Below, one piece after another: positions 27,726 to 36,534 of a stretch of 64,000 bases of DNA (positions are counted from its first letter, which is position 1; every line of letters begins with the position of its first letter). The notes under the pieces were generated by a model. That model searched no databases. It saw only the letters and a program-made list of their open reading frames with translations, and was not told the DNA's origin. Source of the DNA: Deltaproteobacteria bacterium (GTDB lineage Bacteria; SAR324; JACQKK01); assembly GCA_029858505.1 (NCBI GenBank), contig JAOUEW010000005.1:42880-106879 (forward strand), given 5' to 3'. A program made the translations under genes and the position numbers.

Positions 27726-27884
27726 CTACTTGGCGGGAGCGGCAGGAGCGGCAGGAGCGGCGGCAGGAGCGGCTTCTTTCTTAGGAGCGGCTTTCTTGCC
27801 TTTTTTGGCCATGGCGCCAGAGGCCATGGTCAAGCCAAACAGAACGGCGGTCAACAAAGCAACCAGCATGTTGGTGCGTTTCAT
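27726..27884 (-). CDS. Small secreted Lys/Ala/Pro-rich peptide (52 aa)
   Basis: MKRTNMLVALL..GAMA signal peptide, then KKGKKAAPKKEAAPAAAP..; GAGG RBS, double TAG stop, own terminator. Confidence 0.8.
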   Translation of the reverse strand: MKRTNMLVALLTAVLFGLTMASGAMAKKGKKAAPKKEAAPAAAPAAPAAPAK

Positions 27885-28045
27885 GTTTCCTCTTGTAGTG
27901 GAGTGTTGTTGAAAGGGCCCGGGCGAATTGGCCGGGTTAACAGTTATATTACCTATCCCTTCAAAAAAAACCAACGGAATAATTTTGAGGAGATGGTTTT
28001 TTAAACGCCTCGCCCTTGGATAGAGACCCCCCCCTCCATAACAAC

Positions 28046-28086
28046 AAAAAAACCCGGTGTGGTTTCCCACACCGGGTCTTTTTTTT
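28046..28086. terminator. Intrinsic terminator, potentially bidirectional
   Basis: Perfect 10-bp stem CCCGGTGTGG/CCACACCGGG, 4-nt loop, A-run and T-run on the flanks. Confidence 0.88.
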
Positions 28087-28101
28087 GCCCAGCCAAAACA
28101 A

Positions 28102-28290
28102 CTACTTCTTGGCGGGAGCGGCAGCAGGAGCAGCAGCAGGAGCGGCGGCAGGAGCAGCAGCAGGAGCAGCGGCGGCCTTGTCGTCTTTCTTGGCATCTTT
28201 CTTGGCTTTGTCGGCAGCCATGGCGCCAGTAGACAGGGTCAGACCAAACACAACGGCAGTCATCAAAGCAACCAGATTGGTGCGTTTCAT
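28102..28290 (-). CDS. Small secreted Lys/Ala/Pro-rich peptide (62 aa), paralog of 27726-27884
   Basis: MKRTNLVALM..GAMA signal peptide, then ADKAKKDAKKDDK and (AAAP)x5; own terminator. Confidence 0.8.
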   Translation of the reverse strand: MKRTNLVALMTAVVFGLTLSTGAMAADKAKKDAKKDDKAAAAPAAAPAAAPAAAPAAAPAKK

Positions 28291-28391
28291 GTGTATTCCC
28301 TTATGGTTTGATTGTGGTGTTTTTGACAGTTGGCTTCCAGGCGATGATCCGCTGGAGGCCATGGATATAATATCAAGCCCCCATAAAAACG

Positions 28392-29538: not shown

Positions 29539-31113
29539 TTATTGGTCCTGTTGGGCCGACTTGGCATCCAACCGGCTGATGAGCACGGTCACGGCGTGGG
29601 TTAGTTCGGGCATCTTGCGTAAATCCTCCCGAATGTAGGTGATGAGGATGTCGTCACGGCCATCGTTGTTCAGATCCACCACCTCAAAACGCCGGGGCGT
29701 GATGGGGAGAAAATCCCTCAGCAGCCGGTTGTGCTGGGGAGACCACGTGCCCTCTGGGCGCCCCCAGTGAATGCCCATGTTGTCTTTGTCAATCGACAAC
29801 ATCAAATCCGGAAGGTGATCGGCATTCAGGTCTCCAAAGGCCACGATGGGCTGGTGGTCGTAACGCCCCAGGGAGAACTTCACCGAATAGGTTTCCATGG
29901 CGTTGGGCTGCGTGGGATAGCGCTTGTTTTTTCCCATGAAAAAGTAAGAGGCTTCCGCGCTCATGGTGCGGCTGATCAGCCCCTTTACCGCGTTCCAAAA
30001 ACTGATGTCCACGTTCACCACCACCAGGTCCACCAAGCCGTCGGCGTTGTTGTCGTTCAGCAGGGGCAGAGAGAACCCCTCTGACAAAAACACTTGATCG
30101 GGCTTCTGGACAAACTTCAAAGAGGGAGTGTCTCCCGGAGCCGCCTGGCCGTAATACACCAGGGTGCGGGTGTTCGACTTAAACGCCGAATCGGTGGGGG
30201 CCGTTTTGGTAAACACCAGGTCCACCAAGCCGTCTCCGTTCAAGTCACGGGCATCGTGCAGCCACAACGGAGGGTCTAAGGGCTGGTTGCGGTCGAAAGG
30301 CTTGGGCGGAGAAAGGTCCAGGCGGATGGCCGGATTGGCGCGCCCCTGGGGGGTGGGGCCCATCATGTAACCCAGCAACAGGTTGTCGTTAAACACCAAC
30401 ACATCCTTCCAGCCATTTTTATCCAGGTCCACCAAGCGGACATCCGACATATCCCAGGCCAGAATGCGGGAGTTGAACAGGGTCATCACCCAGTTGGTGG
30501 GGTGGGTGGGCAGCCGCGCCTGGGTCATCCACTTTCCATGGGCATCCTGGGCGGCCACCGTGATTTCATCAAACCCAGGAATCAGCAATTCGTCTTGGCC
30601 GTCTCCGTTCAGGTCATACACCCACCGAATTTCAGTTTTCAGTTCTCCCGCCGCCACCGGGAACAGGCTGTTCACCGCCAAGGTTTTTTTGGTTTTTTCA
30701 TCGAAGCGGTCTTTTTCCCAGGGCCAAATTTCTACCCGCCCGGGAACCAGCAGGGCCAGGGCTGCCCCCTGTTTCAGGCGCATCACCCCCACCATCATGG
30801 TTTGAGAGGGAATCCCCACCGATTGGCTGCGTTCAGGAAACCCCCCGGCCGACTGAAACGCCGTCGAGACAAAATAACGGGGCACCCGGCGGGTGCGGTC
30901 GACCTCTACCACCACCAAATCCTTCAGACCGTCCCCCGACACGTCCGCCGCCAGCACCTCGGCCAGTTCCCGCTCGACCGTAAGGGTATACCGAGAAAAC
31001 CCATCGGCCCGTTGGGCCAGGGCCTGCCCCCCACAAAGACATACCCCCCCCACCAGACCCGCCCCCAGGACCAGTCTGTAAAAAATCTGCTTTGGGAGGG
31101 AAATTTCAAACAT
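29539..31113 (-). CDS. Secreted FG-GAP/VCBS repeat protein
   Basis: Signal peptide plus seven DxxxDGxxD-type repeats (DVSGDGLKDL, DLNGDGQDEL, DLNGDGLVDL, DLNNDGRDDI, etc.). Confidence 0.85.
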   Translation of the reverse strand: MFEISLPKQIFYRLVLGAGLVGGVCLCGGQALAQRADGFSRYTLTVERELAEVLAADVSGDGLKDLVVVEVDRTRRVPRYFVSTAFQSAGGFPERSQSVGIPSQTMMVGVMRLKQGAALALLVPGRVEIWPWEKDRFDEKTKKTLAVNSLFPVAAGELKTEIRWVYDLNGDGQDELLIPGFDEITVAAQDAHGKWMTQARLPTHPTNWVMTLFNSRILAWDMSDVRLVDLDKNGWKDVLVFNDNLLLGYMMGPTPQGRANPAIRLDLSPPKPFDRNQPLDPPLWLHDARDLNGDGLVDLVFTKTAPTDSAFKSNTRTLVYYGQAAPGDTPSLKFVQKPDQVFLSEGFSLPLLNDNNADGLVDLVVVNVDISFWNAVKGLISRTMSAEASYFFMGKNKRYPTQPNAMETYSVKFSLGRYDHQPIVAFGDLNADHLPDLMLSIDKDNMGIHWGRPEGTWSPQHNRLLRDFLPITPRRFEVVDLNNDGRDDILITYIREDLRKMPELTHAVTVLISRLDAKSAQQDQ

Positions 31114-31315
31114 GGCCGCCCCGGAGAAGGAACCGTTTCAAACGTTTGTGGTGATTTACTATGGGGATTTGTCCGAAAAATGTAAAGTTTTGGTCGTGCA
31201 CTGGCTAAGAGATCATCCCTTTTTCTTCTGGCACCGCCTTGACGGAACATTGGCCTTTCCCTCATGATGGTTCAACGTGTATTCGCTCTACATCGCCGTC
31301 TTTTCAGGGGTGACC

Positions 31316-32530
31316 ATGACCGCCAAAGGCAGCTCCCGTTTCAAATCTGGTCGGGTTTGGCTGGTCACCTTGGCCGCCCTGCTGGCCCTGGGGGGGTGTG
31401 CCGATAAAACCGGGTGGGTGCCGGTCTCTAACCCCGGCTTGATGGCCTGGAGCGATGACGGAGACCGGGCCGGGCTAGAATTCGCGGTTCTTCAATCTAT
31501 TCAATATTATCGGAAAATCCCCCCTGCCACCAAATTTCAGATTGGCCCAGACACCTACACCGCCGAAGAAATGGCGCTGTCGCTGGAGTTGTTTTTGGCC
31601 ATCCTGAGAGAATCCCCCGACACGGCCACCTTTCAGGCCCGCCTGGGCCAAAAGTTCAAAGTGGTCGAAACCCGCCGGGAAGAAGGCGACAACCTGCTCA
31701 CTGGCTATTACGCGCCATCCATTCCAGGCTCCCGAAAACCCACGGCTGAATTCAACACCCCCCTGCTGGCCCGCCCCGACAACCTGCTGGTGGTTGATTT
31801 GGAAAAGTTTGGGGTGGAAACCACCCCCCGCCGCTCACTGGTGGGGCGGGTGGAGGGCAACCGGATCACCCCCTTTTTCACCCGCAAGGAAATTCAGGAA
31901 AAAAACGTGCTGAAGGACCAAGCCAAGGTGCTGGCCTGGGTCCGCCCCTTGGATTTGTATTTTCTGCAAATCCAAGGATCCGGGGTCATTCAATTCCCCG
32001 ATGGCTCGCGCTTGGTGGCGGGCTACGACGTGAGCAACGGGCACCCCTACCGCAACATCGGACAAGTGTTGATCAACCGAGAGGTCATCACTCGAGAGGA
32101 AATGTCCATGCAGGCCATCCGGGCCTATCTGGAGGCCAACCCCAAACAAATGCACGGCATTCTGAACAAAAACCCCAGCTATGTGTTCTTTCGTGAGTTA
32201 AAGGGAAGCCCCCTGGGCAACATTCAGGTGCCCCTCACCCCCCTGCGCTCGGTGGCCATGGATGACAAACTCATCCCCAAGGGCGCCCTGGTGTACGTGG
32301 ACACCGAAGTTCCCTCGCCCAACGCCCCCGACCAGCGCCCCCGGATGCGCCGCTTCATGCTGATTCAGGATACCGGCGGGGCCATCCGCGGCCATGGCCG
32401 GGCCGATGTGTATTGGGGAGAGGGCGACCAGGCCGAACTGATGGCTGGTCACATGCGGCACCCTGGGCGGCTGTTTGTGGTGGTGGCTCGCCGGGAGTAC
32501 CTCAAACCCTCCGTGGTTCACAATCCTTAA
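31316..32530 (+). CDS. mltA: Membrane-bound lytic murein transglycosylase A (lipoprotein)
   Basis: Lipobox LGGC, TGYY, FLQIQGSG, NPSYVFF, QDTGGAIRG..DVYWG (3D domain). Confidence 0.95.
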   Translation: MTAKGSSRFKSGRVWLVTLAALLALGGCADKTGWVPVSNPGLMAWSDDGDRAGLEFAVLQSIQYYRKIPPATKFQIGPDTYTAEEMALSLELFLAILRESPDTATFQARLGQKFKVVETRREEGDNLLTGYYAPSIPGSRKPTAEFNTPLLARPDNLLVVDLEKFGVETTPRRSLVGRVEGNRITPFFTRKEIQEKNVLKDQAKVLAWVRPLDLYFLQIQGSGVIQFPDGSRLVAGYDVSNGHPYRNIGQVLINREVITREEMSMQAIRAYLEANPKQMHGILNKNPSYVFFRELKGSPLGNIQVPLTPLRSVAMDDKLIPKGALVYVDTEVPSPNAPDQRPRMRRFMLIQDTGGAIRGHGRADVYWGEGDQAELMAGHMRHPGRLFVVVARREYLKPSVVHNP

Positions 32531-32535
32531 CACTC

Positions 32536-32570
32536 AAGGGGGGCTTCGCCCCCCAAGCCCCCCTTATTTT
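32536..32570 (+). terminator. Hairpin terminator after mltA
   Basis: AAGGGGGGCTT / AAGCCCCCCTT 11-bp stem followed by ATTTT. Confidence 0.7.
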
Positions 32571-32875
32571 TCACGGTAAATTCCCAGGTGGTCGGAATGA
32601 TGGAAGTAAAGGTGCTCCCCCGACTTGCCCAATTGTAGCACAACGTCTTGGGGGTCGCCCTGAAGGTTCTTATTTTTTACGGTATTTTGAGCGTGCTGGC
32701 CAGCTGTCGCCGAACGGTGTTCCAGCCCCCGCCCAGGGAATTCCCCCGTGTAGTGGGGGTTCTTCAGCGTGTTCTGAGCGTGTTCGTCCGCAGTTGCTGA
32801 ACGGTGCTCCACCCCCTGGCCGGGGAAGGTGCCGTCGAATATAAAAGGCCGGTAATAAATACCGGCCTTTTTCAA
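32564..32875 (-). pseudogene. Rhs-family protein fragment (pre-core segment ending YFHHSDHLG)
   Basis: EHLYFHHSDHLG matches the YxHxDHLG motif that opens the Rhs-associated core; the frame ends 5 codons later; 236 bp are duplicated at 33709-33944. Confidence 0.65.
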
Positions 32876-33944
32876 TCAAAGTTACTTTGCGATTTCAAAT
32901 TTCAGCCTGACATAACCAGTGCCTTTCACCAGGGTAAGATATAAATAATTTCCATGCACTTCATAGTCAAGGATTTTTACTTTCCCTTTTTCCTTGTGCT
33001 TCCACTCAGTTCTATCGGGGAAATATGATTTATACTCATCCCAGTTCCAATAAAATTTGATCGGTTTTTTATAAGTTTTTGAAAAGGCCGTGCCAAAATA
33101 AAAAACACGGTCACTTTTCATATCTTCAGAAAGATAAATGTCCCGCTTCTCATCGTAATAAGCCAAATTAAAAATGGCTGGCGACTCACTCTTGTCCGAT
33201 TCTCGAAAAAATTTAATGTATACATAATATGAATCTCTGATTACCCTCCTGACTTGCACAGTAATAGTAAATATATCTTTTGAGTAACCACTTGGTTCAT
33301 ACTGCAAATACTCGTTAAATTCCATGTCTGCGAGTTTCCACTTTTTTTCCGTGGCATACCGGTAATAAATTGCGGCTTCTTTTTCATTAAAATACAATAC
33401 GGTCACAGCAACATTAGGGGAAGCACCCTCCCCCAAATCCCATTCATCAACTGTAATTTTATTAAACGTTTCTTTGTATTTCTGTGGGATATCTATTTCC
33501 ACCTCGTCATAATAAAATCGATCCCCTTTTTTTTGAATAGATTTCCCAATTTCATCCTGGCCCCATATAGGGGTGGAAATAAATAGTATGCAAAAAACCA
33601 CTCCCCACATCACTACCGTGCTGGATGTTTTATATTTTTGCATTACTTGACTCCTTTCTTAAATACATTTCCGCCACTTATAACGCCCGTGTCTTTAAAG
33701 CCTTTTATGTCAGAATGGTGGAAGTAGAGGTGCTCCCCCGACTTGCCCAATTGTAGCACAACGTCTTGAGAGTCGCCCTGAAGGTTCTTATTTTTTACGG
33801 TATTTTGAGCGTGCTGGCCAGCTGTCGCCGAACGGTGTTCCAGCCCCCGCCCAGGGAATTCCCCCGTATAGTGGGGGTTCTTCAGCGTGTTCTGAGCGTG
33901 TTCGTCCGCAGTTGCTGAACGGTGCTCCAGGCCTTGGCCGGGGA
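32591..33944. repeat. 236-bp direct repeat pair (32591-32826 and 33709-33944) flanking an AT-rich gene
   Basis: Aligned by eye: 9 mismatches, offset 1118; each copy holds an internal 87-bp duplication. Confidence 0.92.
32882..33643 (-). CDS. AT-rich secreted protein, probable immunity protein
   Basis: Much lower GC than flanks, signal peptide, AGGAG RBS, TAATG overlap with the upstream Rhs fragment. Confidence 0.75.
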   Translation of the reverse strand: MQKYKTSSTVVMWGVVFCILFISTPIWGQDEIGKSIQKKGDRFYYDEVEIDIPQKYKETFNKITVDEWDLGEGASPNVAVTVLYFNEKEAAIYYRYATEKKWKLADMEFNEYLQYEPSGYSKDIFTITVQVRRVIRDSYYVYIKFFRESDKSESPAIFNLAYYDEKRDIYLSEDMKSDRVFYFGTAFSKTYKKPIKFYWNWDEYKSYFPDRTEWKHKEKGKVKILDYEVHGNYLYLTLVKGTGYVRLKFEIAK

Positions 33945-33999
33945 GCGCACCCGTTGCTCCCCCGGCCCCCTTGCCCTTTCCATTGCCCAAACCCTGACC
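33643..33999 (-). pseudogene. Rhs-family fragment fused to a short AT-rich tail (internally deleted toxin gene)
   Basis: Same pre-core segment up to YFHHSD, then unrelated IKGFKDTGVISGGNVFKKGVK; 5' end abuts a REP-like element. Confidence 0.6.
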
Positions 34000-34127
34000 A
34001 TTGGATTCAGGCTGTTTCCCCTCCACGAAGGGGAGGGGATGCCCCGCCAGGGGCAGGGGAGGGGTGTTTTTGCCATTCCCCCATTACTTCGGGAGAGGGA
34101 CAGGCGGCACCGCCGCCGGGGGTGAGG
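34000..34127. repeat. REP-like heads (A reverse plus a B-like variant)
   Basis: TTTCCCCTCCACGAAGGGGAGGGGATGCCCCGCCAGGGGCAGGGGAGGGGTG and GGGAGAGGGACAGGCGGCACCGCCGCC. Confidence 0.85.
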
Positions 34128-34267
34128 TCCTTCTTCGCTTTTCCTTTGTCTGGGTTTGCAGAATACGCCGCCGAGCCCTGGCATTTCCCCCGTGCGTGTT
34201 CGGGTGTATGCTTTGAAGGGCCCACGGGCCCTGAACGCCCTCGCCCACCCTCCATATCAGACCCCCC

Positions 34268-35266
34268 ATGACACCCACCACCAAACCCTTTGGAACCACC
34301 GGCCAGCAAGTATCGTCCATGGGTCTGGGTTGCATGGGCATGAGCGGTACCTACGGCCGCAGCGCCGATGAGGACGCCATCCGCACCCTGCACCGCTCGC
34401 TGGAGATGGGCTGCACCTTTCTGGATACCGCCGACGTGTACGGCAGCGGGCACAACGAACAACTGCTGGGGCGGGCCATTGCGGGCAAACGGTCCCAGGT
34501 GTTTCTGGCCACCAAGTTTGGGTTGAGCGGCATATCCAACAGCCCCGGCCTGCTAACGGTGAACGGCCGTCCGGAATACGCCCAGGCCGCCTGCGAGGCC
34601 AGCCTGAAGCGCCTGCAGGTAGACGTGATTGATCTGTATTACCTGCACCGGCTAGACAAAACCGTGCCCATCGAAGAAACCGTGGGGGCCATGGGCCGCT
34701 TGGTGGAACAGGGCAAGGTTCGCTACCTGGGCCTGTCGGAGGTCTCTGCCGCCACTCTGGAGCGGGCCCACCGCGCCCACCCCATCGCCGCCCTTCAATC
34801 GGAATACTCCCTGTGGTGGACGGAACCTGAAGCGGGTGCGCTGCCCGCCTGCCGCAAACTGGGCGTGGCCTTTGTGGCCTATTCGCCCCTGGGGCGGGGC
34901 ATGCTGGCGGGGAAAATCCAATCCCCCACGGAACTCGACGAAAAAGACTGGCGGCGGGTTGGCCCCCGTTTTCAGGCCGGGGCCTTCGAGCACAACCTTC
35001 AGCTCACCCAAGCCGTCAGCCGCATGGCCGCCCGCAAGGGGGTCTCTCCGGGCCAGATCGCCCTGGCCTGGCTGCTGCACGAAGGCCCAGAGGTGTTCCC
35101 CATTCCCGGCACCAAGCGCATCGCCTACCTGGAAGAAAACTGGCAGGCCCTGAACCTGACCCTAACCCCCGAAGACCGCCAAGAGTTGCGAGACATCATG
35201 GGTGCCGTGGAGATTCAGGGCCACCGTTACCCAGAACGAGCCGCCCAACTGATTGACCAGGGGTAG
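34268..35266 (+). CDS. Aldo/keto reductase
   Basis: GLGCMGMS, DTADVYG, ATKFG, IDLYYLHR, LQSEYSL, YSPLGRG, IPGTKR. Confidence 0.95.
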   Translation: MTPTTKPFGTTGQQVSSMGLGCMGMSGTYGRSADEDAIRTLHRSLEMGCTFLDTADVYGSGHNEQLLGRAIAGKRSQVFLATKFGLSGISNSPGLLTVNGRPEYAQAACEASLKRLQVDVIDLYYLHRLDKTVPIEETVGAMGRLVEQGKVRYLGLSEVSAATLERAHRAHPIAALQSEYSLWWTEPEAGALPACRKLGVAFVAYSPLGRGMLAGKIQSPTELDEKDWRRVGPRFQAGAFEHNLQLTQAVSRMAARKGVSPGQIALAWLLHEGPEVFPIPGTKRIAYLEENWQALNLTLTPEDRQELRDIMGAVEIQGHRYPERAAQLIDQG

Positions 35267-35510
35267 GGGAACAGCGTGTAGCCAAACAGTGACGCGCTTG
35301 CATCCGTTTAGTTTGCGCCAACCGAACGGATGTATTGAATCACCAAAGGATTCGAGCCTTGCCCCTCTCCTTCGGGGAAGGGCAACCGCCCGCAGGGCGG
35401 TGGGGAGGGGTGTTGTAGGGAACAGCGTGAAGCCAAACAGTGACGCGCTTGCATCCGTTTAGTTTGCGCCAACCGAACGGTTGTATTGAATCACCAATGG
35501 ATTCGAGCCT
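35267..35510. repeat. REP/REPIN-like element: 93-bp linker duplicated around a variant head
   Basis: 35267-35359 repeated at 35418-35510 (period 151), both ending GGATTCGAG; the middle head ends GGGGAGGGGTGTTG. Confidence 0.85.
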
Positions 35511-35577
35511 CGCCCATTGGGCGGTGGGGTGTCGTGGGGGGGCCAGGGGGCTTCGCTCCCCATAAAATCATCATCAA

Positions 35578-36534
35578 ATGAACTGGCTAAATCCCATGAA
35601 CTTGGTTTCCCATCGCCATCACCAACTTCACCGCATGATCGCCCTGCTGGCAACCCTGTTGGGCCTGGGAGCTTTCTCTGCCCTGGCGGCGGAACCCCCG
35701 CCCATTCCCGTGCTGGCGTCCATTCCTCCCCTGGCGGCCATGGCGCGGGCGGTGGGTGGCGACCGGGTGACGGTGGAAGTGCTGATTCCTCCTGGGCAAA
35801 ACGACCATACCTATTCCCTCACCCCCGCCCAGGCCCGGCGCTTTTCCTCCGCCCGCATGTTGGCCGCCGTGGGGCTGGGCTACGAATTCTGGGCCCCCCG
35901 CATGGTGGCCAATGCCAACAACCCCCGGCTGGTGGTGGTGTACGCCGGAGAGGGGCTGCCCGGCGGGCCCCAGTCATGGCATCATGAAGAGCACGAGGGA
36001 GAGGCCCACGACGAAGCCGAGGAGGGAGACATCCGCCACAACCCCCATGTGTGGGTAGACCCGGTATGGGCGGGAATCATGGCCGAGCGGATTGCCGATG
36101 GGCTGGCCAAGGCCGACCCCCCCCACGCCCAAGAATACCACCAGCGGCTGCGGGTGTTTCAACAAGAAACCGCCCAGTTGCACCAAGAATACAAACAGGC
36201 CCTGGCCCCCTTGAAGGGGCGTCCCCTGGTGGTGTACCACGCCAGCTTTGCCCACTTGGCCCACCGCTACGGAATGCCTTTGATTGCCGTGGTGGAAGGG
36301 GGCCACGAGCAAGAACCCACCCCCGCCCAAATGGCCCGGGCCATTCAAGCCGGGCGGGCCGCCGGGGTAAAGGCCGTGTTTTCCGAGCCCCAGTTCCCCC
36401 CCCAGGCGGTCCGCCTGCTGGCCAAAGAAATGGGCGCCGAAGTGCTGACCCTGGACGTGCTGGGGGGAGCGGAGGAAACCTACCCCGCCCTGATGCGGAG
36501 AAACCTGGCGGCCATAACGAAAGGACTACGATGA
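35578..36534 (+). CDS. znuA: Zn/Mn ABC transporter substrate-binding protein
   Basis: DHTY, His/Glu-rich loop, NPHVW, YHASF; true start may be 35596 or 35635. Confidence 0.88.
   Translation: MNWLNPMNLVSHRHHQLHRMIALLATLLGLGAFSALAAEPPPIPVLASIPPLAAMARAVGGDRVTVEVLIPPGQNDHTYSLTPAQARRFSSARMLAAVGLGYEFWAPRMVANANNPRLVVVYAGEGLPGGPQSWHHEEHEGEAHDEAEEGDIRHNPHVWVDPVWAGIMAERIADGLAKADPPHAQEYHQRLRVFQQETAQLHQEYKQALAPLKGRPLVVYHASFAHLAHRYGMPLIAVVEGGHEQEPTPAQMARAIQAGRAAGVKAVFSEPQFPPQAVRLLAKEMGAEVLTLDVLGGAEETYPALMRRNLAAITKGLR

Follow-up and report, generated by a model that had tools for sequence, protein, structure and literature searches.

A likely decayed orphan Rhs C-terminal module that retains a candidate immunity gene

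Orphan rhs-CT/rhsI modules and the C-terminal displacement of Rhs genes were reportedly described by Jackson et al. in 2009. Both are also treated by Poole et al. 2011 (PMC3150448). Orphan immunity genes and arrays arising from sequential effector displacement are reported for Vibrio cholerae (PMC5361080), the Serratia Rhs NADase immunity proteins (PMC10539506), and gut Bacteroidales (PMC12247911). In Salmonella, internal promoters are reported to let Rhs-CT/RhsI pairs work as type II toxin-antitoxin modules (PMC7043789).

Here we analyzed one locus in a window of 64,000 nucleotides (the whole stretch of DNA under study), which belongs to a metagenome bin of 2.79 Mb that is 97.4% complete. The minus strand of the locus holds three ORFs, 34026..33643, 33643..32882, and one ending at 32564, flanked by a convergent mltA and a divergent aldo/keto reductase gene. 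Among relatives, mltA is found in 15 of 20 and an FG-GAP gene upstream of mltA is syntenic in 8 of the 11 loci examined, with the aldo/keto reductase absent from the ~1.5 kb downstream in the relatives' mltA loci examined. We consider the locus likely to be a decayed orphan Rhs C-terminal (rhs-CT/rhsI-type) module in which a candidate immunity gene has been retained. Its features, in the direction of the minus strand, are as follows.

34027..34072, minus strand: REP-like dispersed element directly adjoining the GTG of the 127-aa ORF, with copies found by blastn-short
33643..34026, minus strand: truncated Rhs fragment, a 127-aa ORF made of 27 codons, the arm, and a 21-codon tail, without core or toxin domain
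33709..33944, minus strand: upstream 236-bp homology arm, a predicted pre-core Rhs loop with a duplicated PGxGLEHRS..HAQNT unit, ending ..GEHLYFHHSD
33643..33708, minus strand: AT-rich tail of 21 codons plus TAA (IKGFKDTGVISGGNVFKKGVK, then stop), GC 0.364, its junction with the arm visible in the alignment
32882..33643, minus strand: 253-aa ORFan from the ORF list, candidate orphan immunity protein, GC 0.362, with no homologue or family match
32843..32871, minus strand: intrinsic terminator of the 253-aa gene, a hairpin then UUUUAUAUU, found by RNA folding and as an inverted repeat, terminator-like on both strands
32591..32826, minus strand: downstream 236-bp homology arm from repeat search and alignments, read as the putative remnant of a displaced module
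32564..32590, minus strand: 3' end of the downstream-arm ORF, HLG then IYREK and stop, taken from the sequence

The original prediction placed 236-bp direct repeats around an AT-rich 253-aa gene, and a repeat search with pairwise alignment recovered the same coordinates, 32591-32826 and 33709-33944. The two 236-nt copies share 96% identity at a spacing of 1118 nt. Their nine mismatches agree with the earlier count, but six of these had been called synonymous where a scripted count in the minus-strand frame gives seven, with two non-synonymous changes (L/V and S/P). The other two frames have one and two synonymous differences, and seven of nine corresponds to a binomial P of 0.0009 given an expected synonymous fraction of 0.234. 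The anticipated 29-aa internal duplication is present in both arm translations (PGQGLEHRSATADEHAQNTLKNPHYTGEF / PGRGLEHRSATAGQHAQNTVKNKNLQGD(S/P)). The nucleotide states at the arm mismatches are common to other paralogues, and both arms are mosaic, resembling full genes at the 5' side and orphan fragments at the 3' side; this mosaicism and the synonymous differences together point to probable recombination among modules. At 0.576 and 0.589, the GC content of the arms is far from that of the tail and the 253-aa gene and closer to that of the window (0.608). The arm ends are also as first described. The downstream copy continues into DHLG and then stops, while the upstream copy breaks off after HSD and runs through 21 AT-rich codons to a TAA that overlaps the next ATG. 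The downstream-arm ORF ends in HSDHLGIYREK, four codons past DHLG, with its last codons and stop inside the T-run of the convergent mltA terminator; a terminator scan places a terminator-like site at 32536-32565 on the plus strand.

An Rhs origin of the arms had been proposed from the sequence, and it is borne out by two paralogues of 407 and 390 aa on contig C4 of the same genome. In both, this same arm leads via HSDHLGS into the Rhs-associated core (TIGR03696 Rhs_assc_core; 67.7 and 67.1 bits, cut-off 32.5). The order in these intact paralogues is arm, core with DPxG..DPxG cleavage motifs, variable C-terminal toxin, and AT-rich downstream ORF, of 207 aa for the 407-aa paralogue and 192 aa for the 390-aa one. 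Their residues ~97-223 match the C-terminal cage ends of solved structures of TccC3, YenC2, Rhs proteins, Tse5, and teneurins. A full-length Rhs with the arm motif was found outside the genome, in the YD-shell Rhs of locus L019 (Gammaproteobacteria MAG, JAOUNS010000025.1), and all copies within the genome itself are shell-less modules. Paralogue residues 58-241 are covered by an alignment with the L019 Rhs (212 aa, 47% identity, E 3e-63). In it, a single arm-motif unit, NPGQGLLHRSDRANxVSQNTVKNKNLGGDP, lies in a low-complexity pre-core loop just ahead of the core, before RFLYFYHTDHLGS, and the EHRS..HAQNT unit of the arms is a duplicated version of this motif. The suggestion that the EHRSATA..HAQNT repeat marks an undescribed Rhs subfamily is therefore not upheld, since the repeat is a duplicated single motif from an otherwise ordinary YD-shell Rhs of one Gammaproteobacteria MAG. 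These alignments with L019 and the core-bearing paralogues show the Rhs ancestry of the arms, which are copies of the segment immediately upstream of the Rhs-associated core, and identify the arm-containing ORF as a partial rhs coding sequence. We set aside several weaker matches. The arm peptide hit 2 of 40 related genomes at E 0.0013 and 0.007 with TGA stops inside both, and two metagenome loci (L027 and L028) gave 37% identity over 45 aa, L027 having oxidoreductase and peptidase genes and no Rhs; the two genome hits and L027 were treated as noise.

Residues 1-113/114 of the 127-aa ORF are 86% and 82% identical to the two full paralogues. It matches no Pfam family and no NCBIfam model at or near any curated cut-off. 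The NCBIfam search found TIGR03696 in neither arm ORF of the window, as the domain would start only beyond HSD or HSDHLG, where the arms end. Set against the two paralogues, the window copy is without the core and all but 21 toxin codons, so the description of a collapsed cassette, in which the core and most of the toxin had been deleted, is right. This comparison shows the loss of core and toxin from the window module. Where a variable C-terminal toxin domain would follow the core, only 21 AT-rich codons follow the arm, and the module is therefore better read as a decayed derivative than as an intact orphan module. The tail is presumed to be the 3' end of a lost toxin gene, whose product would end in ..GVISGGNVFKKGVK. 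It also carries a strong ribosome-binding site, AAGGAG, 7 nt before the ATG of the 253-aa gene (upstream sequence GAAAGGAGTCAAGTAATG). At the other end of the fragment, the REP-like element marks the 5' truncation point. Its copies are numerous and in both orientations, with 50 blastn-short matches at E<=1e-3 on nine contigs, three of them on the duplicate contig C6. The 5' ends of the genome's Rhs modules likewise adjoin this dispersed element. The GTG of the 127-aa ORF is placed in the REP-like element and has no Shine-Dalgarno sequence ahead of it.

Directly downstream is a small, compositionally deviant ORF of 253 aa (GC 0.362 versus 0.608), whose start ATG overlaps the TAA of the 127-aa ORF. 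The N-terminus of the protein is a hydrophobic, signal-like segment (MQKYKTSSTVVMWGVVFCILFISTPIWG/QDE). RNA folding of 32822-32892 on the minus strand gave -24.4 kcal/mol (z = -4.64), with 0 of 200 shuffles as stable. The hairpin at 32843-32871 was missed by a simple terminator scan and picked up by the RNA fold, and the sole Rfam match over 32000-36000 was a sub-threshold sRNA on this hairpin (23 bits versus 50). The 253-aa protein has no homologue in 40 relatives or in G041, the Rhs-bearing genome holding L019. It found only itself among 78 word-sharing candidates from a collection of 5.8e9 clusters and in an exhaustive phmmer search of 1.84e9 representatives. The sole Pfam match was YccJ (E 0.091, below that family's cut-off), NCBIfam and PADLOC gave none, and profiles of known immunity protein families (Pfam Imm/Tsi-type and others) did not match. 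Against PDB sequences the best E was 0.016, with no stretch passing alone, which is chance level. A single-sequence AF2 model had a pLDDT of 41.9 and no usable fold, and a protein-language and Atlas look-up gave no lead (model pLDDT 0.46, best feature score 0.82, TM <=0.37). The gene is intact and unique. Because no homologue is detectable, its candidate immunity role is argued from position, composition, and analogy, by which the protein is probably an antidote or immunity protein; because none occurs in any collection searched, its association with a toxin is observed only once. The toxin beside it has been cut down to 21 residues.

The same genome carries seven such modules: the one in the window, C4:649270-650493, C4:665408-666580, C4:546107-546409, C4:544643-545215, C5:367xxx, and C5:483xxx. 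The downstream ORF is intact in all seven, and an intact core and toxin occur in two. Six of the downstream ORFs have a GC content of 0.31-0.36; the remaining one, at C4:544643-545215, is fused to the arm in one ORF with an overall GC of 0.47. The modules break within or before the core at several points, after GKSGE, HHS, HHSD, HLG, TNAE, and GETWL. The C5:367 module duplicates, at 93% identity, the immunity gene of paralogue A together with the core remnant downstream of it, and has no toxin. At the paralogue-A locus itself, a strain-variant contig (L023) differs in both the toxin and the downstream gene. A peptidoglycan-hydrolase assignment for the C-terminus of the 390-aa paralogue, based on an HxxxxD-type motif, found no support in Pfam or PDB and was dropped. 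Ten candidates were scored for RHS_repeat (PF05593) across the entire 2.79-Mb genome, and none matched at E<=1. A tblastn search of the genome with the L019 shell aligned only query residues >=636 and >=404, which are loop and core. The arm is also absent from proteins of 714-2035 aa among 164 candidates, a weak indication. PAAR_motif, Phage_GPD (VgrG), and VipB (T6SS sheath) have no match in the genome. It thus carries shell-less orphan modules only, with no YD shell or T6SS gene. No main rhs gene was found in the genome, so the window module does not lie downstream of one. Such a gene could exist unseen, since Rhs genes frequently drop out during assembly or binning and the metagenome bin is 97.4% complete.

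In the history we propose, the ..FHHSD end of the upstream arm would have been fused directly to the 21 codons that closed an AT-rich toxin gene. The downstream arm would be what remains of an earlier module that C-terminal displacement moved downstream and that was later truncated four codons beyond DHLG. Successive displacement with two deletions could have produced this arrangement, as could the integration, through a single crossover, of an excised circle of arm and cassette. This history calls for either an undocumented pair of separate truncations near one HSD(HLG) position or an equally undocumented donor that was already degenerate, which counts against it. The arms may have been, and may still be, substrates for RecA-type recombination that brings in, moves, and excises cassettes. 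The toxin part would have decayed as undeliverable, and the 253-aa gene may have been kept because its product, an immunity protein working in the periplasm or cell envelope, would protect a non-attacking host against the Rhs toxin of its neighbors.

As one clear stage in a seven-module series in a small genome, two with toxin and five without, the locus has value beyond itself, and the series suggests that, in a bacterium unable to attack, selection has favored immunity and worked against toxins that it cannot deliver. A broader reading can be offered only tentatively: that this T6SS-less, shell-less lineage keeps dispersed, REP-bounded Rhs arms as landing pads that capture the toxin/immunity cassettes of neighbors, with the toxins decaying and immunity staying, and that the window is a late stage, with its 253-aa ORFan serving as antidote against a periplasm-acting Rhs toxin. 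If true, this would be an immunity-capture defense repertoire made from the attackers' own conserved sequence. If the selection suggested by the series is confirmed, the orphan-immunity literature would gain an environmental case that lacks a T6SS, and the 253-aa protein would be an unstudied immunity candidate without relatives. The pre-core loop motif could also serve as a handle for locating the attacking Rhs lineage in the same habitat type.

A duplication in a metagenome bin with at least seven arm copies could be an assembly artefact, in which paralogous arms belonging to different loci or strains were, for instance, collapsed or joined into a chimera, and the bin does include a redundant contig (C6, repeating the first 103.9 kb of C11) and shows inflated depth of unitigs inside the arms. 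The assembly was checked against Logan contigs of run X1, which come from a second assembler and probably from the source sample, and so are not independent data. One record (961 nt) spans 32782-33742 with zero differences and therefore bridges both cassette junctions; another (8922 nt) covers 32300-32612, the junction between the mltA terminator and the downstream arm. Word depth is even, at ~140-165 over the unique parts of the locus. Since the arms differ at nine positions, each junction is anchored in copy-specific sequence; no single contig bridges the interior of either arm. The misassembly raised as a concern in the original prediction is, on this contig-level evidence, highly improbable. 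No arm-to-arm joint is listed in the Logan contigs, which drop rare variants. The one listed joint connects 33777 with 33874, putting 9 other letters in place of 96 skipped nt, and is consistent with a paralogous arm in which the repeat unit occurs once.

Alternatively, the arms could be Rhs-derived and the 253-aa gene between the two Rhs fragments could be cargo of unrelated origin, gained by horizontal transfer and encoding, for example, a secreted or envelope protein of another function. The protein lacks a homologue, family, or confident fold, it is unlike the other six downstream ORFs of the genome and those of L019 and L023, and it is the longest of the seven. However, the overlap of its ATG with the stop of the AT-rich remnant, itself an in-frame fusion to the Rhs arm, the shared GC content of tail and gene, and a position exactly like that of the downstream genes in the other six modules all argue against cargo. 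Signal-like hydrophobic N-termini are also seen, by reading, in at least four other downstream ORFs (192, 237, and 139 aa and the fused one), and mutual unrelatedness is typical of immunity proteins (PMC3150448). We regard cargo as unlikely. Less probable still, and by a clear step, is that the shell-less modules are active intracellular toxin/antidote systems (type II TA-like addiction modules), of which the one in the window has lost its toxin. Two modules do have uninterrupted frames of 407 and 390 aa with core, toxin, and downstream gene, and PMC7043789 describes main and orphan Rhs-CTs that are expressed internally and act as TA modules. These frames, however, are preceded by no ATG or ribosome-binding site, the 407-aa protein has no Met before residue ~198, the window module has no toxin, and the signal-like N-terminus of its downstream protein is ill-suited to a cytoplasmic antitoxin.

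The decayed orphan module remains our preferred reading, and several described systems resemble it. Like the orphan rhs-CT/rhsI modules in PMC3150448, it has a partial, shell-less rhs with an unclear translation start, then a C-terminus that varies across the series, then a small unrelated gene. Leftovers of older modules are found farther downstream, immunity genes would still be expressible, and orphan C-termini are related to the C-termini or cores of full-length Rhs in other bacteria. Unlike in that account, the orphans here have no main rhs gene ahead of them and the modules occupy at least five separate loci. Their shared arm is positioned before the core and not only before DPxGL, the window toxin is cut to 21 codons, and there are several break points within or before the core. 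The orphan immunity arrays reported in PMC5361080, PMC10539506, and PMC12247911 likewise hold immunity without a cognate effector, presumably against non-self effectors, gained by recombination at conserved effector sequence. Those arrays adjoin a T6SS or effector locus or sit on dedicated mobile islands, whereas here genes for a T6SS sheath, VgrG, and PAAR are absent from the host, whose immunity candidate is an ORFan. With the Salmonella TA modules (PMC7043789), the locus shares shell-less Rhs C-terminal modules that could in principle be expressed without delivery, and it differs in that the window module is toxin-less and its downstream protein looks exported. The L019 Rhs has the pre-core motif (PGQGLLHRS..QNTVKNKNLGGDP), the core of the paralogues including EKYLP..LPGMGGV and DPxG, and the same layout of toxin, small ORF, and orphan. 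It differs in having a YD-repeat shell, a genome with four VipB matches, and the motif as a single unit inside a long T/G/S/N-rich loop. By these comparisons, the locus is a relic of a well-known kind.

The 253-aa gene lies between two arms, the copies of a 236-nt direct repeat, within the following layout.

Features of the window locus (coordinates, strand, description)
34027-34072: REP-like dispersed element of 46 nt, directly 5' of the GTG, from short-blast matches
34026..33643, minus: 127-aa ORF, a truncated Rhs fragment with the upstream arm; GTG start, TAA stop
33643..32882, minus: 253-aa ORF; ATG overlapping the TAA of the 127-aa ORF
about 32843-32871, minus: strong hairpin and U-run; fold -24.4 kcal/mol, z = -4.64, 0/200 shuffles equally stable
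end at 32564, minus: second open frame, with the downstream arm
32591-32826 (downstream arm) and 33709-33944 (upstream arm), minus: 236-nt direct repeat, 96% identity, from repeat search and pairwise alignment

The bracketing of an AT-rich gene by repeats, as put forward in the original prediction, was confirmed by repeat search, alignment and GC values (253-aa gene, 0.362; arms, 0.576 and 0.589; window, 0.608). The 236-bp length and nine differing positions also stood, but seven rather than six of these are synonymous in the coding frame, whereas the two alternative frames make only 1 and 2 of them synonymous (expected fraction 0.234, binomial P = 0.0009). Past ..GEHLYFHHSD the upstream arm loses homology and continues into a tail of 21 AT-rich codons (IKGFKDTGVISGGNVFKKGVK and a stop; GC 0.364), the presumed end of a lost toxin gene. 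The downstream arm keeps HLG and then reads IYREK and a stop, its final codons sitting inside the T-run of the convergent mltA terminator. An AAGGAG lies 7 nt 5' of the 253-aa gene's ATG; inspection of the sequence upstream of the 127-aa ORF's GTG revealed no comparable ribosome-binding site.

Next to the locus, MltA (31277-32530, plus strand) stands beside a 524-aa FG-GAP/VCBS-like repeat protein (29539-31113, minus strand), assigned by sequence reading. Of 11 relatives' loci inspected, 8 again place the FG-GAP-like gene beside mltA; the gene on the downstream side of mltA shows no such conservation. At 27726-28362 (minus strand) are two adjacent small ORFs for signal-peptide proteins with Lys-rich and Ala/Pro-repeat tails (..KKGKKAAPKKEAAPAAAPAAPAAPAK and ..AAAPAAAPAAAPAAAPAAAPAKK), which look like tandem paralogues.

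In the 2.79-Mb genome, the 127-aa ORF is matched at 11 sites once those on contig C6 are included. C6 (105,880 nt) is an identical duplicate of the initial ~103.9 kb of the window's contig C11 (126,351 nt); owing to this redundancy, own-genome matches in the region appear twice. Two of the matches sit in long frames on contig C4. Using ORF maps, tblastn and blastn of the genome, we defined seven modules.

Modules in the genome
(a) C4:649270-650493, 407-aa gene, then 207-aa ORF (GC 0.31), then core remnant at C4:648402-648578
(b) C4:665408-666580 (within frame 665408-666859), 390-aa gene (P0003), then 192-aa ORF (GC 0.32, signal-like N-terminus), then arm remnant at C4:664589-664660, ending after HHS
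(c) C4:546107-546409, arm and core start to FGETWL, 54 unrelated residues, 237-aa ORF (GC 0.35)
(d) C4:544643-545215, arm and core start to TVTNAE, straight into an ORF with a signal-like start; fused ORF GC 0.47 overall
(e) window locus
(f) C5:367322-367957, 211-aa ORF, 93% identical to the 207-aa ORF
(g) C5:483515-484118, ..LHLGKSGE, 19 codons, 139-aa ORF (GC 0.31), core remnant

The 407-aa and 390-aa paralogues, for which loci L003, L004, L021 and L022 are listed, share the window ORF's starting sequence and pass via ..HLYFHHSDHLGSVSTVTN.. into the Rhs-associated core TIGR03696 (67.7 and 67.1 bits, cut-off 32.5). Their C-terminal domains after the core are unrelated. A comparison of the 390-aa protein with solved structures matched its residues ~97-223 to the cage C-terminal end of TccC3, YenC2, several Rhs proteins, Tse5, Tse15 and teneurins, and its first ~96 residues to no structure at all. 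These genes show the arm to be what immediately precedes an Rhs core; in the window copy, the core and nearly all of the toxin have been lost. The order of arm, core, C-terminal domain and AT-rich ORF therefore upholds the central idea of the original prediction, in which the arms were of Rhs origin and the core and most of the toxin had been deleted.

The downstream ORF is intact in all seven modules, and core and toxin are kept only in (a) and (b). Module (f) repeats the 207-aa gene without a toxin, and its 93% homology to (a) extends over 832 nt, beginning just past the stop of the toxin and taking in the core remnant downstream; on its 5' side is a degenerate arm end (..VVRKGKSGEHL and a stop), recognised by eye and unscored. 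Locus L023, on an 8,528-nt metagenome contig whose record-name prefix is shared with C4, agrees with (a) in its upstream neighbour gene and has a different C-terminal domain, a different downstream ORF (94 aa, membrane-like) and again a core remnant after it; its predicted protein extends upstream across REP-derived sequence. L023 and (a) represent cassette polymorphism at one locus, L023 being a strain variant.

The 46-nt element is GC-rich and partly palindromic (..CCCCTCCCCTGCCCCTGGCGGGGCATCCCCTCCCC..) and, besides its window copy, recurs at about 47 genomic sites (50 short-blast matches, 3 on the duplicate C6, and further matches, in both orientations). It directly adjoins each of the three "headed" Rhs modules on the 5' side, and similar REP-like sequence cuts the arm remnant of (b) at C4:664589. 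The GTG GAG GGG start of the 127-aa ORF looks like a piece of the element's hairpin and this 5' end is common to the window ORF and both C4 paralogues, so the "start" of these Rhs genes is probably fortuitous. Such a start fits orphan modules, in which translation signals are generally lacking; Poole et al. 2011 (PMC3150448) state this for orphan cdiA-CT and also describe orphan rhs-CT/rhsI modules. Elsewhere in the window, two 98-nt direct repeats (35267-35364 and 35418-35515, 96% identical) lie between aldo/keto reductase and znuA-like genes. With 18 further weaker copies on other contigs (73-84% identity) and no Rfam family match, the 98-nt repeat looks like a second small dispersed element.

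Misassembly, raised as a concern in the original prediction, is argued against by the Logan contigs of X1, the one public run containing the stretch. This sediment metagenome is probably the source sample, and hence provides a second assembly of the same data rather than independent data. Contig 2 (961 nt) spans 32782-33742 with zero differences, linking the downstream arm's copy-specific 5' edge, hairpin, gene, tail and the upstream arm's 3' edge; contig 1 (8922 nt) spans 32300-32612. Depth is 132-165 across unique parts, and the arm interiors form short unitigs of high depth, as expected of multi-copy sequence. No arm-to-arm joint is among the X1 contig joints listed, where rare excision products would be invisible.

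An alignment of all arm copies showed that both window arms are mosaic. Their 5' two-thirds resemble the full genes of (a) and (b), one short stretch excepted, and the 3' third (GD.QDVVLQLGKSGEHLYFHHSD) has the orphan-fragment variant. The nine arm-to-arm differences are mostly states found in other paralogues too, one example being the 98.6% match of the upstream arm with fragment (d) across 69 nt. They are thus inherited polymorphism or gene conversion among modules rather than fresh mutations after in-place duplication, which also accounts for the synonymous excess. Two routes fit the present structure. A new module may have recombined in upstream of a resident one (successive displacement), with two truncations afterwards, or an excised circle of arm, tail, gene and terminator (1118 bp) may have entered a resident truncated arm by a single crossover.

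The 253-aa ORF is a real gene on the internal grounds of its open frame, ribosome-binding site, N-terminus and terminator. In 36% GC DNA, where random stops make up about 7% of codons, the chance of an open run of 253 codons is of the order of 1e-8 by hand arithmetic. On inspection, a K-rich stretch at the N-terminus leads into a hydrophobic segment of 18 residues (the model has a helix at 8-22). The protein retrieved only itself among 78 candidates from a word-indexed search of a 5.8e9-cluster collection and in an exhaustive phmmer search of 1.84e9 representatives. There were no homologues in 40 relatives or in G041, a Rhs-bearing Gammaproteobacteria genome, no Pfam, NCBIfam or PADLOC family, no PDB sequence match, and no relation to the other modules' downstream proteins; no usable structure model was obtained. 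Its position, a GC content like that of the toxin remnant and the arrangement of the six sister modules point to a candidate immunity protein against a periplasm- or envelope-acting toxin.

The arm itself is rare. Proteins carrying it were limited to the two paralogues and the 467-aa P0004 among 118 candidates of 223-713 aa; none of 164 candidates of 714-2035 aa had it, which is weak evidence, and the 40 relatives gave just two weak matches, both with internal stops. Across 185,579 species genomes, a pattern scan picked up two loci (L019 and L020), both in one Gammaproteobacteria MAG, so that by this pattern-limited method the Rhs lineage with the motif occurs in one other species genome only. 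L019, the one of the two that was examined, contains a pair of full-length YD-repeat Rhs genes; small ORFs lie downstream of these genes and an orphan fragment sits between them. The genome with L019 has four matches to VipB (T6SS sheath). Residues 58 to 241 of the 407-aa paralogue are 47% identical to the L019 Rhs (E 3e-63). Both L019 proteins have a long T/G/S/N-rich loop ahead of RFLYFYHTDHLGS that includes ..GNGKGKGK..NPGQGLLHRSDRANxVSQNTVKNKNLGGDP.., a single unit of the motif duplicated in the window arms. The EHRSATA..HAQNT repeat, taken originally as a possible mark of an undescribed Rhs subfamily, is therefore a lineage-specific duplication within the low-complexity loop that precedes the core, in an Rhs lineage that is ordinary in other respects.

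A full-length Rhs with a single unit of the arm motif exists in the Gammaproteobacteria MAG. The window's own genome has shell-less modules only: there the RHS_repeat profile had no match at E<=1 and tblastn of the L019 proteins reached the loop and core alone (residues at least 636 and at least 404). VipB, PAAR and Phage_GPD profiles also had no matches there. Marker genes put the completeness of this genome at 97.4%, and a main rhs gene may therefore still be missing from it. Among 40 relatives, VipB was found in 1 and TIGR03696 in 5 (same family 1/18, same order 4/22). The open frame around the only Rhs core in the 18 same-family genomes (G005:C186:1967-2215) is no longer than 441 aa, and this core may belong to a further shell-less module. 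Shell-less modules could instead act as internal toxin-antitoxin pairs, as described in PMC7043789, a reading that could apply to (a) and (b) but not to the window module, because it is toxin-less.

The candidate immunity function apart, the main line is supported, with arms derived from Rhs, a cassette that has collapsed and a downstream gene left as an orphan, and the locus is a further instance of the known orphan-module type. The "acquired interbacterial defence" islands of Bacteroidales are a further analogue. The locus behaves like the enterobacterial orphan rhs-CT/rhsI modules described in PMC3150448 and is similar to orphan-immunity arrays that arise from effector displacement, as described in PMC5361080, PMC10539506 and PMC12247911. 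Unlike these modules and arrays, it sits in a genome without a main rhs gene or T6SS, the modules are dispersed and REP-bounded, the homology arm is upstream of the core, and breaks occur within the core or ahead of it instead of at DPxGL. The more interesting part is that toxins are decaying and downstream genes are kept in a genome without delivery machinery.
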